From: an uncultured Chlamydiales bacterium
GTDB lineage: Bacteria; Chlamydiota; Chlamydiia; Chlamydiales; JAAKFR01
DNA: 64,000 nt
Assembly (NCBI GenBank): GCA_963699155.1
Contig: OY969414.1
Coordinates: forward strand, 1,483,757-1,547,756
Direction: 5' to 3'
A program made the position numbers and the translations under genes. Below are positions 4,729 through 63,048 of this stretch, in pieces. Under the pieces are notes generated by a model that was not told where the DNA came from, ran no database searches, and saw only the letters and a list, made by a program, of their open reading frames with translations. Each line of letters starts with the position of its first letter. Position 1 is the first letter of the stretch.

Positions 4729-5801
4729 AAATTCTGCATACGGAAGCATCCCCAGGATGGGGTGGACAGGAACTACGTATCTTGCGCGAAGCAGAAGGGA
4801 TGCGTGAAAGAGGGCATGAGGTCATTCTTGCCATTCAGCAGAGAGGTGGTTTAGTAGACCCTGCACGGGCGAGCGGCTTCAAGGTCTACGAGATTCCCTT
4901 CAAAAAAACAAAATTTATTCAAGTTCTCTATAGCTTAATGCGTCTCATTCGCAAAGAGGGCATCGAAATTATCAATACCCATTCCTCGATCGATGCCTGG
5001 CTGGCTGGCTTAGCGGGAAAGATCAGTGGCTGCCATGTGATCCGGACGCGTCACCTCTCAACGCCGATCCGAAAAGGATTCAATAGCCATCTACTTTATA
5101 ACTGGCTTGCCGATGATGTGGTTACTACCTGCGAAGAGGCTGCAATCTCCATTCGTTCTCAGGCAAGGCTTCCTGCAGAGCGTTGCCGCTCGATTCCGAC
5201 AGGCGTGGATCCGAAGATCGTCATCGATCCCGAAGAGGTCAGAAAGTGGCGCGCACACTATGGGCTCAAAGATTCCGACTGCGTCGTGGGAACACTCTGT
5301 ATTTTGAGAGGGTGGAAAGGGGTGAGCGATCTTCTTCAGGCTGCTAAACTTCTGGAGCATATCCCCCAGCTCAAATGGGTTGTCGTAGGAGATGGGGTCA
5401 GCGCTCCTGTTTTTCACCAAGAGTGGAAAGAGCTCAGACTTGAAGAGAAGGTGATCTTCACAGGCCACATCTCACCTCCCTTCACAGCACTGGCTGCTAT
5501 GGATATTTTCACACTCCTCAGCCGTGCCAACGAAGGGGTCAGCCAAGCGAGCCTCCAAGCAGCCTGGCTAAAGAAACCGCTCATCACAACAACCATCGGC
5601 GGCCTCCCAGAAGTCTGCATCGATGGCACCACAGGTTTCCAAGTACCCACCCACAATCCCAAAGCCGTCGCCGACGCCGTCCTCAAACTCCTCAACGCTC
5701 CCGCCGACCGTACCCGAATGGGCGACGCTGCCCACAACCTCGTCGTCGAGCGCTTCCTGCTCCCCCACATGCTCGACCAGATGGAAGCTCTCTACCATTA
5801 G
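4725..5801 (+). CDS. Glycosyltransferase family 4 (likely LPS core)
   Basis: ILHTEASPGWGGQE, NTHSS.D and a GT-B C-terminal EG..QA.LQA motif. Confidence 0.9.
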   Translation: MKILHTEASPGWGGQELRILREAEGMRERGHEVILAIQQRGGLVDPARASGFKVYEIPFKKTKFIQVLYSLMRLIRKEGIEIINTHSSIDAWLAGLAGKISGCHVIRTRHLSTPIRKGFNSHLLYNWLADDVVTTCEEAAISIRSQARLPAERCRSIPTGVDPKIVIDPEEVRKWRAHYGLKDSDCVVGTLCILRGWKGVSDLLQAAKLLEHIPQLKWVVVGDGVSAPVFHQEWKELRLEEKVIFTGHISPPFTALAAMDIFTLLSRANEGVSQASLQAAWLKKPLITTTIGGLPEVCIDGTTGFQVPTHNPKAVADAVLKLLNAPADRTRMGDAAHNLVVERFLLPHMLDQMEALYH

Positions 5802-5850
5802 TAAGGATATAGAAAATCACAGAGGAGACAGAGACACTAAGGACACAGAG

Positions 5851-6012
5851 AATCGCCTCTTGGTGTGCCCTTCAGGGCACACCCTGCTGTGGGGAAAAAG
5901 GAAAAAATCAAAAGAAGGAAGTCTATTAACGCCTAGCATAGCAAACCACCTTCTTTTGATTTTTTCCTTTTCCCCCACAGCATTTTGAGCTTCGCTCAAA
6001 AAAGAGGCGATT
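5851..6012. repeat. Four-way-junction palindromic element A, preceded by CACAGAG-type repeats (5817-5850)
   Basis: Outer stem AATCGCCTCTT/AAGAGGCGATT; hairpin GGTGTGCCC-TTCA-GGGCACACC; ~34-bp stem 5885-5918/5949-5982; hairpin TTTTGAGC-TTC-GCTCAAAA. Confidence 0.85.
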
Positions 6013-61514: not shown

Positions 61515-62293
61515 ACCTCATTATGAAAAAAAATCTCTCCGAAATTCGCCGACTGCTCCATGAGCGGAAAGAGGGGGTTCAAGCCCTCATACGCTTTCTG
61601 ATTTTGAAAGGAATTGCCCCAGCGATCGCTGAGGAAATCACCCTCGAGCTCGCAGGAGAGATCGGCCAGCTTCAGGGAGAGCTGATAAAGCGAATCAAAG
61701 TTTGTGAAGAGATCTCATCAGGAAGGCTTCTCTTTGTCGGCCCCACAGGTGTCGGCAAGACAACAACCGTATTGAAACTGGCCGACTACTACCTCAAACA
61801 GGGGAGAAAAGTGGCTCTAGCCACACTGGACGAGGAGAAAAAGAGGAGCTTCGCCAGCTGGGCGGAAGGTAGGCGCATCCCTTTTTGTGATAGGCCCACA
61901 GGGAATGAGGAGCTCCTTCTGATCGATACGGAGGGGTGCAACTTCTACCAGCCCAATCGTGTCGAGGCTTTAGGTGAGAAGATCGCCGACTGGGAAGGGG
62001 AGATTGTTCTCGTCCTCAGCGCTGCAGCAAAAGAGGTCGATCTCTATGGGGCCATCCATCAATTTTCCCTCCTCTCTCCCACGAGTCTCGCCTTCACCAA
62101 GCTCGATGAGACCCTCGCAGCCGGTGTGCTGATCAATGTCTCCAGCCGCACCGATCTGCCCATCCGCTATGTCGCCTATGGCTTTCCACTTCCAGGTGAG
62201 ATCCACCCTGCTAAGAGTGAAGCGATCACCCACAAAATTTTGACCGATTTGAATCAAGAAGAGTTTCAACTACTGAGGCAGCTCACCTTATGA
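61511..62293 (+). CDS. flhF: FlhF-like SRP-family GTPase
   Basis: GPTGVGKTTT.LKLA, LIDTEG and FTKLDET; lies between flhA and fliA. Confidence 0.78.
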   Translation: MNLIMKKNLSEIRRLLHERKEGVQALIRFLILKGIAPAIAEEITLELAGEIGQLQGELIKRIKVCEEISSGRLLFVGPTGVGKTTTVLKLADYYLKQGRKVALATLDEEKKRSFASWAEGRRIPFCDRPTGNEELLLIDTEGCNFYQPNRVEALGEKIADWEGEIVLVLSAAAKEVDLYGAIHQFSLLSPTSLAFTKLDETLAAGVLINVSSRTDLPIRYVAYGFPLPGEIHPAKSEAITHKILTDLNQEEFQLLRQLTL

Positions 62294-63048
62294 TTGAAAG
62301 TCTCGAGCTTTGGGAAGAGTATCAAAAAAGTCGTTCCGAAGAGACGCGCGATGCGTTGATCGTCCGCTATCTGCCTCTCGTCAAATATGTGGTGGGGCGT
62401 GTGGGAAGCTCTCTTCCTTCCTTCGTGAAGCTAGAAGATCTCTATTCTTCAGGTGTGACAGGACTTGTCAAAGCGGTCGAAAAGTTTGATCTCAGTAAAA
62501 ATAGCAAGTTTGAAAGCTATGCGATCTTCCTCATCAAGGGGGCGATCATCGATGAGCTTCGGGAGCTCGACTGGATTCCGAGGAGTGTCCACCAAAAGGC
62601 CAATCAGATCGCCGCTGCGCAAAGCACACTTCAGCAAAAACTGGGCCGTGACCCCACCGATCCCGAGCTTGCCGCTGCGCTCAACCTCACCGAAGATGAG
62701 CTCGGCGAGCTGCTCGAGCGGGTGAGACCGGCCATTCTCATTTCTTTGAATCGAGAAGTCTCTCAACAGTCTGACGAAGAGAATAGCCCCATCGCCGAAC
62801 GCATTGCCGATCTACGGGCAGAGAGCAGTTTCGAAGTGGCCGATCGCCGCGAGTTTGCCTCCCTCCTCGAAAAGGCGATCGCCGCCCTCCCCGATCAGGA
62901 GCGGCGGGTGCTCACCCTCTACTACTATGAGGAGCTCATGCTCAAAGAAATTGGAAAAATCCTCGGCGTCACTGAATCACGCGTCTCTCAAATCCACACC
63001 AAAGCGCTCCTCAAACTCCGCACTCTCATGAGCCGCCATCTCCTCTAA
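62290..63048 (+). CDS. fliA: RNA polymerase sigma-28 factor
   Basis: YLPLVKY, IKGAIIDELR.LDW.PRS, LYYYEEL.LKEIG.ILGVTESRVSQIH. Confidence 0.95.
   Translation: MIESLELWEEYQKSRSEETRDALIVRYLPLVKYVVGRVGSSLPSFVKLEDLYSSGVTGLVKAVEKFDLSKNSKFESYAIFLIKGAIIDELRELDWIPRSVHQKANQIAAAQSTLQQKLGRDPTDPELAAALNLTEDELGELLERVRPAILISLNREVSQQSDEENSPIAERIADLRAESSFEVADRREFASLLEKAIAALPDQERRVLTLYYYEELMLKEIGKILGVTESRVSQIHTKALLKLRTLMSRHLL

Follow-up and report, generated by a model that had tools for sequence, protein, structure and literature searches.

Local strand skews in a 64-kb stretch of the genome of an uncultured Chlamydiales bacterium are very probably a silent-site feature of coding sequence that depends on the position of a gene within its transcription unit, and not a product of mutagenesis at hotspots. 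This stretch, hereafter the window, comprises contig positions 1483757-1547756 of a single-contig genome (G000; 2,399,326 bp, 47.5% G+C). An earlier note on the window had described C-rich left and G-rich right flanks on the + strand around variable sites, and had attributed them to exposure of single-stranded DNA (ssDNA) or to DNA synthesis starting at insertion hotspots. We found that the flanks largely correspond to the 3′ ends of genes that close a transcription unit, in which C-ending codons become frequent over the last approximately 150 codons, up to the stop codon. To a wider reading, in which these unit-end C zones are maintained at the level of the transcript, function in the loading of Rho, and adjoin boundaries where insertions are tolerated, we assign a probability of about 0.42.

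Codon bias follows position in the transcription unit

Genes were called as open reading frames (ORFs) of at least 80 amino acids (aa), scored by codon log-odds trained on long ORFs and chosen greedily without overlap, resulting in 2021 genes that covered 87.7% of the genome. The longest ORF set the gene start, transcription units were inferred from spacing alone, and the calls, starts and unit boundaries are our own approximations. Gene ends were termed tight if a codirectional gene lay at most 20 nucleotides (nt) downstream, and all remaining ends were termed free. The terminal shift (e3-m3) was the coding-strand GC skew at codon position 3 (GC3 skew) of the gene end (e3) minus that of the gene middle (m3).

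Across the 971 genes of at least 300 aa, coding GC3 skew was -0.040 over the first 100 codons, -0.126 mid-gene and -0.195 over the last 100 (paired p=7e-46). The terminal shift was -0.103 at free ends (n=631) versus -0.003 at tight ends (n=340; p=2e-9), and the last 300 nt had a skew under -0.3 at 79 of the 631 free ends versus 3 of the 340 tight ends. The free ends behaved alike regardless of what they faced: the shift was -0.113 for convergent genes at most 20 nt apart (n=136), -0.100 for gaps of 21-100 nt (n=221), -0.096 for gaps of 101-300 nt (n=119), and -0.103 for gaps above 300 nt (n=155), with no difference among the four classes (Kruskal p=0.91) and the same picture in a stricter gene set. 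The earlier note had held that a skew equally strong at all gene ends would speak against its mechanism; for all unit-terminal ends this is what we observed, since the mean shift was independent of gap length. In 137 long genes with free ends, the fraction of codons with C at position 3 (C3) was flat at ~0.275, climbed from ~150 codons before the stop, and reached 0.35-0.36 at 25-75 codons before it, while in 83 long genes with tight ends C3 stayed flat and showed no terminal rise.

Within runs of tightly spaced genes, the bias was partitioned by rank. The first gene of a run had GC3 skews of -0.027, -0.081 and -0.092 at its start, middle and end (n=216), internal genes had -0.133, -0.146 and -0.115 (n=124), and the last gene had -0.127, -0.163 and -0.288 (n=207); single genes had -0.070, -0.129 and -0.225 (n=424). 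Unit-first genes additionally displayed a weaker G-shift, with less C and more G over the first ~150-200 codons. Because unit-terminal ends are C-rich and unit-first starts are G-shifted, the + strand reads C-rich to the left and G-rich to the right wherever two units meet. Two descriptive claims of the earlier note were thereby upheld. The skew follows position and not simply gene strand, and the strand leading away from an inter-unit gap is on average G-shifted on both types of flank, with GC3 skew decreasing by 0.10-0.18 at free 3′ ends and increasing by 0.06-0.12 at free 5′ ends.

The twelve segments that had been named in the window all had the claimed sign, with + strand GC skews of -0.22 to -0.44 for the left set and of +0.27 to +0.46 for the right, the mean of the window being +0.021. 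Each lay in the extreme 0.2-8.3% (two-sided) of equal-length windows across the 64 kb, percentiles that are not p-values because the segments were picked after the fact. Ten of the twelve were 3′ ends of genes, C-rich on the coding strand, in which the skew resided at codon position 3 (-0.45 to -0.80), position 1 ranging from -0.29 to +0.26. The remaining two (38780-39280 and 59035-59520) were the 5′ parts of genes whose coding strand is G3-rich for the most part. The reported flip at ~39300 between two minus-strand genes is real, and marks the junction of the 3′ end of the gene at 39367-40419 (coding GC3 skew -0.86) with the 5′ part of that at 38252-39277 (+0.34 and +0.44 in its first and second thirds).

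On the scale of the whole genome, cumulative GC skew was lowest near 0.35 Mb and highest near 1.62 Mb, as in ordinary replication skew; the + strand of the window is accordingly the leading strand, and the window lies about 70-140 kb short of the terminus. Despite this clear replication skew, genes of at least 300 aa were divided almost evenly between the leading (487) and lagging (484) strands.

The change is at silent sites and stops at the stop codon

At four-fold degenerate sites of free ends, C rose from 0.363 to 0.451, while G fell from 0.194 to 0.158, T from 0.258 to 0.226, and A from 0.185 to 0.166; tight ends showed no change. All 16 of the C-ending codons rose at free ends. A at position 3 went up solely in the last 25 codons (0.225 versus about 0.20). 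In the ribosomal-protein cluster, four-fold C was 0.299 versus 0.347 in neighboring genes, and since this cluster has no preference for C at such sites, the terminal zone is not simply a matter of "better" codons.

The boundary was sharpest at the 42 strongly skewed ends with a spacer of at least 200 nt, where skew went from -0.16 at 450 nt before the stop to -0.44 at 100-50 nt, was -0.385 in the last 50 nt, and then dropped as a cliff to -0.036 in the first 50 nt past the stop codon. Among the 189 ends with spacers of at least 300 nt, the mean skew ranged from -0.08 to -0.12 ahead of the stop codon and was -0.012 immediately past it. Non-coding DNA had skews near 0 in the 300 nt downstream of these 189 ends and upstream of 169 starts. 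At strongly skewed ends the C peak lay 50-250 nt before the stop.

Several other candidate explanations were set aside. A model based on distance from the RNA end was rejected, as no spill-over into the upstream gene was seen (n=20, with low power). G-quadruplex or i-motif formation involved too few sites to matter, with four C3+ runs occurring at 0.14 per kb at free ends, and uptake-signal motifs (variants of the Neisseria DNA uptake sequence and the Pasteurellaceae uptake signal sequence) were essentially absent.

Conservation in related genomes and relation to variable sites

Comparisons covered 1.6 of the 2.59 Mb of a genome from the same genus (G002), 340 kb of one from the same family (G004), 277 kb and 120 kb of two from the same order (G017 and G019), and 300 kb of Escherichia coli K-12. 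Median protein identity to G002 was about 72%, and the 1.6 Mb provided 361 orthologue pairs of at least 300 aa. Among these, both the end skew (rho=0.51, p=1.5e-25) and the terminal shift (rho=0.40, p=1.3e-15) were correlated between the two genomes. Silent sites were saturated over the same distance: of the 2055 four-fold sites that conserved codons offered, only 674 were identical. Because the bias is kept at the same gene ends in a relative with saturated silent sites, the C bias has been maintained over time, most simply by selection acting on the transcript.

G002 itself had a weaker effect (-0.054 at free ends, n=449, p=6e-7; +0.027 at tight ends, n=196), and the portion of G019 had a shift of -0.076 (n=31, p=0.02). 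No zone was detected in the analyzed portions of G004 (+0.090, n=86) or G017 (+0.032, n=75), nor in that of E. coli, where the free shift was +0.016 and 0 of 94 ends were strongly skewed.

The proposed association with hotspots was assessed at 210 free ends with a G002 orthologue. Where the neighbor was the same and the spacer was within 100 nt of its length in G002, the shift was -0.044 and 2 of 44 ends fell in the strong tail; where the neighbor was the same and the spacer differed by more than 100 nt, these values were -0.130 and 2 of 23; and where the neighbor was different, -0.180 and 45 of 143. Codirectional pairs accounted for a significant contrast between conserved (-0.007, n=30) and variable (-0.150, n=85) neighbors (p=0.008). 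Such a contrast would be expected if conserved codirectional neighbors were simply operon partners. Convergent pairs are necessarily unit ends, and among them the conserved cases retained the shift (-0.122, n=14, p=0.058) and did not differ significantly from the variable ones (-0.197, n=81; p=0.16). Moreover, the orthologous ends in G002 were also skewed where the neighbor differed (-0.100), so that the skew is a property of the gene end rather than of whatever is inserted there now. The link to hotspots was thus sustained insofar as skewed ends are enriched beside sites that vary relative to G002, and weakened insofar as unit boundaries account for this enrichment equally well. The contrast between codirectional and convergent pairs fits operon structure rather than insertion activity, although some residual link to variable sites may exist, and the inserted or variable DNA at unit boundaries would mark places where insertions and rearrangements are tolerated.

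One flagged site illustrates both sides. The gap at 5801-7553 measures 1751 nt here versus about 176 nt in G002, and the flagged gene end on its left (4725-5801) is skewed solely in the genome with the 1.6 kb of extra DNA (e3 of -0.66 versus +0.16 in G002), while the gene on the opposite side of the gap has the skew here and in G002 alike.

A possible role in Rho-dependent termination

Terminal-gene zones are stretches of C-rich, G-poor, weakly structured mRNA that extend up to the stop codon. A terminal zone of this kind, with C>G inside the last gene, could serve as a rut-like loading region for Rho; transcription would then end at or shortly past the stop codon once the last ribosome leaves, in a compact genome with hardly any hairpin-plus-U terminators, and the G-shift of the 5′ zones would prevent Rho from loading on early RNA. 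As a proposal drawn from sequence, this Rho function is tentative, at slightly under even odds.

Several properties of the zones are in keeping with it. In Nadiras et al. 2018 (PMC6144790), C>G bubbles are defined by 78-nt windows and all tested bubbles longer than 78 bp terminated in vitro. Here, bubbles with an area above 3000 were present at 24% of 220 free ends, versus 8% of mid-gene positions and 6% of 118 tight ends. Small bubbles (area above 700) were common everywhere (70-75%), and for this reason only the large ones are informative. A bubble with %C at or above %G on the non-template strand in 78-nt windows over ~80 nt or more was found at the end of glgX (423 nt, area 7579) and at that of the gene at 7553-10987 (226 nt, area 3688). 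YC dimers numbered 159 per kb at free ends versus 142 in mid-gene, and GGG 10.8 versus 13.7 per kb. Predicted folding per 120 nt was -21.6 kcal/mol at strongly skewed ends with 55.8% GC (n=71) versus -27.7 kcal/mol at 48.7% GC (n=323). Rut sites are described in PMC10319736 as rich in C, poor in G and lacking structure, with polymerase release usually 100-200 nt downstream. From a C peak 50-250 nt before the stop, release would fall at or just past the stop, which suits an 88%-coding genome. Finally, a crude finder of hairpin-plus-T sites (E<=-12) returned hits at 42 of 631 free ends versus 12 of 340 tight ends. Such sites were barely enriched at free ends in any of five chlamydial genomes, compared with 21-28% versus 0-4% in E. 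coli.

A number of observations weigh against the wider reading. Within the genome, skew had no relation to the presence of hairpin-plus-T sites (Spearman 0.06, p=0.11; tail fractions of 14% versus 17%), and between genomes there was no compensation, as G004 and G017 are equally terminator-poor and have an intact rho but no C zone. E. coli, the model for Rho, likewise had no C zone in 300 kb. The zones lie within translated sequence, where they might become exposed after the last ribosome departs, and the spacer just past the stop is 23% C and not C-rich; a demand for C-rich RNA in itself should be visible in the free 3′ untranslated region, and the spacer does not show it. Where the last gene was shorter than 130 aa, there was no spill-over into the upstream gene (+0.019, n=20, with low power). 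The strongest zone in the window, in the gene at 39367-40419, lies 89 nt upstream of a probable functional partner (a ResB-like followed by a CcsA-like gene), an odd place for a terminator. With respect to insertions, the strong tail comprised 45 of 143 ends with a differing downstream neighbor versus 4 of 67 otherwise, which counts against denying variable sites any role; strong-tail ends were also overrepresented beside gaps above 100 nt in the strict gene set (31 of 148 versus 25 of 243, p=0.0046), while in the full gene set the proportions were 54 of 274 versus 54 of 357 (p=0.14).

The last point of this kind concerns rho itself. The sole rho locus (contig ~89800-91220; positions 1342-2763 of locus L002) is interrupted by four frame changes and one in-frame stop when compared with Rho of G002, which is intact. 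The split protein is still 73-93% identical to G002 Rho, three genomes of the genus share ~72-73% DNA identity with this one at the locus, and rho is above the family cut-off and intact in 18 of 20 relatives. The essential gene tuf (EF-Tu; contig 1232886-1234072) is also split, over three frames and with an in-frame TAA, while among 184 other genes compared with G002 just one is split. Since tuf shares this kind of damage and so few other genes do, the breaks in rho and tuf, as seen in the assembly, are likely local consensus errors at very conserved genes and not real pseudogenes. The idea that rho is a pseudogene, and Rho consequently not involved, was weakened by the same comparison.

A bolder version can be formulated, in which one genus of environmental chlamydiae would use a silent-site "polarity code": C-poor, G-shifted unit starts and a 300-450-nt run of C-ending codons stopping at the stop codon would form the main terminator signal by loading Rho in a lineage nearly devoid of hairpin terminators, foreign or rearranged DNA would gather just behind it, and the signal would be gained and lost between closely related genera. 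We regard this version as somewhat unlikely.

Alternative explanations

Selection could act on the RNA for a purpose other than Rho, either to slow 3′-to-5′ exonucleases on transcripts that lack hairpins or to prevent R-loops where ribosomes leave. C runs stall RNase II, no working Rho would be needed, protective hairpin terminators are scarce, and the change is C-specific, unit-terminal only, conserved and weakly structured, all of which would suit such a purpose. However, the spacer just past the stop, which would be the actual RNA 3′ end or the part least covered by ribosomes, is not C-rich; short last genes do not pass the bias to the gene upstream; and the pattern is absent from G004 and G017 despite the same scarcity of terminators, leaving this explanation unlikely. 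Selection at the level of translation, favoring C-ending codons near the ORF end for accuracy, speed or clean termination, would account for an effect that is bounded exactly by the stop codon, sits at position 3 and does not spill upstream, and some highly expressed genes are indeed C3-rich, among them the major-outer-membrane-protein (MOMP)-like gene (-0.35 to -0.68) and tuf (C fraction of 0.65 in NNY codons). Yet ribosomes also terminate at ends before a conserved codirectional neighbor, where there is no effect (-0.007, n=30), and the tight ends lack it too; the ribosomal-protein cluster does not favor C at four-fold sites (0.299 versus 0.347), and the universal gene-end trend reported in PMC6892556 is towards AT-rich codons. 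We judge a translational origin quite unlikely.

A transcription-linked asymmetry that builds up along the unit through polymerase density or pausing, with no selection, is supported by the gradual 5′-to-3′ drift of GC3 skew over hundreds of codons, by the joint shift of all 16 C-ending codons, as expected from a force at the level of bases, and by the restriction of the pattern to particular lineages, as is often true of mutational spectra. It is opposed by the cliff at the stop codon, past which transcription runs on and spacers have no skew, by the fall and not rise of A, and by long genes, in which the rise is fixed to the final ~150 codons instead of scaling with length. Deamination of the non-template strand during transcription removes C from the coding strand, so that the known transcription-linked bias has the opposite sign. 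A low probability therefore attaches to this account, similar to that of translational selection. The hotspot mechanism of the earlier note, in which ssDNA exposure or local synthesis enriches the outgoing strand in G and T, draws support from a sign that holds on both flank types, from stronger skew where the neighbor or gap differs from G002, and from the end at 4725-5801, skewed solely in the genome with the extra 1.6 kb. A regional mutation bias should mark non-coding DNA best, ignore stop codons, give complementary spectra on the two types of flank and need an actual site, and the results speak against each of these: the adjoining non-coding DNA has no skew and the effect is limited to position 3; convergent genes that touch, overlap or lie at most 20 nt apart have the full mean shift (-0.113, n=136); and ends in G002 are skewed even with a changed neighbor (-0.100), as is the partner across 5801-7553 in both genomes. 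Under deamination the exposed strand gains T and loses C, so that on the coding strand opposite it a gain of A and a loss of G are expected. The observed changes at four-fold sites (C +0.088, G -0.036, T -0.032, A -0.019), with C gained and A lost, bear no such signature, and we consider ssDNA exposure or synthesis at hotspots very unlikely as the cause. Chance and selective choice were also weighed, as a dozen skewed stretches might be expected in any 64-kb scan, the segments were picked post hoc with free lengths, and just 4 of the 12 ends beside gaps of at least 200 nt in the window are strongly skewed; the genome-wide paired tests (p=7e-46 and p=2e-9), the replication in G002 and the orthologue correlation refute this and make it hardly credible.

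Features of the window

The genome encodes several chlamydial families, including a CT253-family lipoprotein, proteins matching chlamydial-type flhA and fliA models (NCBIfam), and Chlam_OMP (Pfam), which mark it as that of an environmental chlamydia. In the window, four of the twelve 3′ ends that face gaps of at least 200 nt had a last-300-nt skew of -0.25 or below (4725-5801, 24198-24998, 30543-31541 and lpdA), and two of the strongest ends face short gaps, of 70 nt (glgX) and 89 nt (39367-40419).

On the + strand, the GT4 glycosyltransferase gene at 4725-5801 has a C-rich terminal zone at 5499..5801 (last 300 nt skew -0.31, GC3 -0.66), facing the 1751-nt gap. Its previously flagged segment has a position-3 skew of -0.78 and a C3 of 0.66, and the G002 orthologue has no skew (e3 +0.16). 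The variable 1.75-kb spacer (5802..7552) separates the same flanking genes that are about 176 nt apart in G002, and contains short ORFs only, two of which (65 and 81 aa) were tested and had no Pfam family. On its far side, the 1144-aa gene at 7553-10987 (- strand), for which no Pfam or NCBIfam match was found, has a C-rich zone at 7553..7855 (skew -0.19, GC3 -0.45; e3 of -0.29 in the G002 orthologue).

Further C-rich zones on the - strand belong to the CNNM/GldE-like transporter gene at 19771-20994 (zone 19771..20260; coding skew -0.28, position 3 -0.45; e3 of -0.37 in the G002 orthologue), to glgX at 26626-28761 (zone 26626..26960; last 300 nt skew -0.39, GC3 -0.81 versus -0.25 in mid-gene; e3 of -0.42 in G002), where the next gene is 70 nt away, and to a 332-aa gene at 30543-31541 without a family match in Pfam or NCBIfam (zone 30543..30900; skew -0.41, GC3 -0.63). 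The strongest zone in the window is at 39367..39800 (-), in the 350-aa gene at 39367-40419 (last 300 nt skew -0.48, GC3 -0.86), and falls in the 1.7th percentile of 1071 free ends. This gene has a weak ResB-like match (E 4e-4, under the cut-off) and lies 89 nt upstream of the cytochrome c assembly (CcsA-like) gene (38252..39277, -; Pfam Cytochrom_C_asm, E 6.5e-20), in which the supposed left flank 38780-39280 had been placed and which has GC3 skews of +0.34, +0.44 and 0.00. On the + strand, the SpoIID/LytB-domain gene at 24198-24998 has a zone at 24696..24998 (skew -0.35, GC3 -0.64), and the CesT-family chaperone gene at 28946-29443 (Pfam CesT) has a weaker C3-rich end at 29141..29443 (skew -0.09, GC3 -0.39), within which the flagged 101-nt segment has a position-3 skew of -0.65.

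Two runs of genes show the polarity within single units. The first is sucA-sucB-lpdA, whose last gene has a C-rich terminal zone at 50400..50772 (+), with GC3 skew going from -0.12 through -0.23 to -0.70 along lpdA. The tight ends of sucA and sucB are at +0.18 and -0.13 versus the -0.70 of lpdA, and the G002 lpdA orthologue has an e3 of -0.38. The earlier count of 28 C-ending codons among the 40 at 50641-50760 was exact. The second is the four-gene run at 59035-63048 (+; flhB/sctU-like, flhA/sctV-like, flhF-like and sigma-28), which displays the whole polarity in one unit, the first gene having GC3 skews of +0.41 and +0.58, and the third and fourth ending at -0.33 and -0.42. The FlhB/SctU-like first gene (59035..59631, +) is G3-rich throughout and accounts for the supposed right flank 59035-59520. 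The sigma-28 (FliA/WhiG) gene at the end of the run has a C3-rich end at 62746..63048 (+; last 300 nt skew -0.19, GC3 -0.42) and overlaps a convergent gene by 4 nt. Within the spacer 58847-59035 upstream of this run, which had been treated as a site, is a tRNA-Pro(TGG) at 58871-58945 (-).

The MOMP-like gene at 15517-16392 (-; Pfam Chlam_OMP, E 1.6e-68) has a C3-rich end at 15517..15819 that had not been flagged. It is C3-rich over its whole length, with GC3 skews of -0.58, -0.35 and -0.68, unlike the ribosomal-protein cluster.

Other genes in the window had no terminal C zone. These include a pair of convergent genes at 25223-25729 (+) and 26211-26555 (-) that encode nitrile-hydratase-like leader-peptide (NHLP) domains and are candidate precursors of ribosomally synthesized and post-translationally modified peptides (RiPPs), neither end being C-rich, and an IS481-family transposase gene at 54666-55796 (+) in a stretch of low GC (about 41-42%). 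A small signal recognition particle (SRP) RNA is present at 12421-12518 (+).

Comparison with known systems and implications

A C>G bias at Rho terminators is textbook knowledge. The zones share with Rut sites and C>G bubbles, as characterized in PMC6144790 and in maps for Bacillus subtilis and Mycobacterium tuberculosis (PMC12350095, PMC13650167), an RNA that is C-rich, G-poor and weakly structured over 80 to several hundred nt, has more YC dimers, and lies upstream of the expected transcript end. They differ in being located in the silent codon positions of the terminal gene and in ending at the stop codon. They also emerge as an average over the whole genome, are accompanied by a mirrored shift on the 5′ side, are lacking in E. 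coli and two rho-bearing relatives, and are known from sequence alone.

Strand asymmetries arising from replication or transcription, the topic of a review (PMC10030826) and reportedly of work by Francino and Ochman, are mutational and affect non-coding DNA as well. Like the zones, they consist of a local imbalance between two complementary bases on a strand; the terminal C zone differs in being absent from spacers and in a sign opposite to that of the classic transcription-linked C-to-T bias. Intragenic gradients of codon usage are said to have been described by Hooper and Berg in 2000 and Qin et al. in 2004. Peculiar codon usage at 3′ ends, as portrayed by Zahdeh and Carmel 2019 (PMC6892556), likewise involves position-dependent synonymous choice within genes, but the universal trend given there is towards A/T-rich codons near the stop, whereas here C-ending codons rise over ~150 codons and in unit-ending genes only. 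The zone in this genome is a rise of C3 to 0.35-0.36, and not an A/T-ending bias near the stop. Human genes also have GC skew at both unit ends, associated with R-loops (Ginno et al. 2013, PMC3787257); in that study, the skew is positive at both ends, giving G-rich RNA that promotes R-loops, in contrast to the C-rich 3′ end found here. A literature search covering titles, some abstracts and passages returned no description of a run of C-ending codons confined to the unit-terminal gene and bounded by the stop codon, which is not proof that none exists.

For the analysis of other genomes, wherever skew flips locally at a gene boundary, unit position and the stop-codon boundary are the first things to check. 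Should the terminal C zones prove functional, they would explain strong local anomalies of codon usage that might otherwise be mistaken for foreign DNA or mutational hotspots, and unit ends and terminators of uncultured chlamydiae would become predictable from codon usage alone. In that case, this bacterium would write a transcript-end signal into the synonymous sites of the last gene, and the presence of the zones in this genome and G002 versus their absence from G004 and G017 would constitute a natural experiment, at the level of genera, on the evolution of termination strategy.

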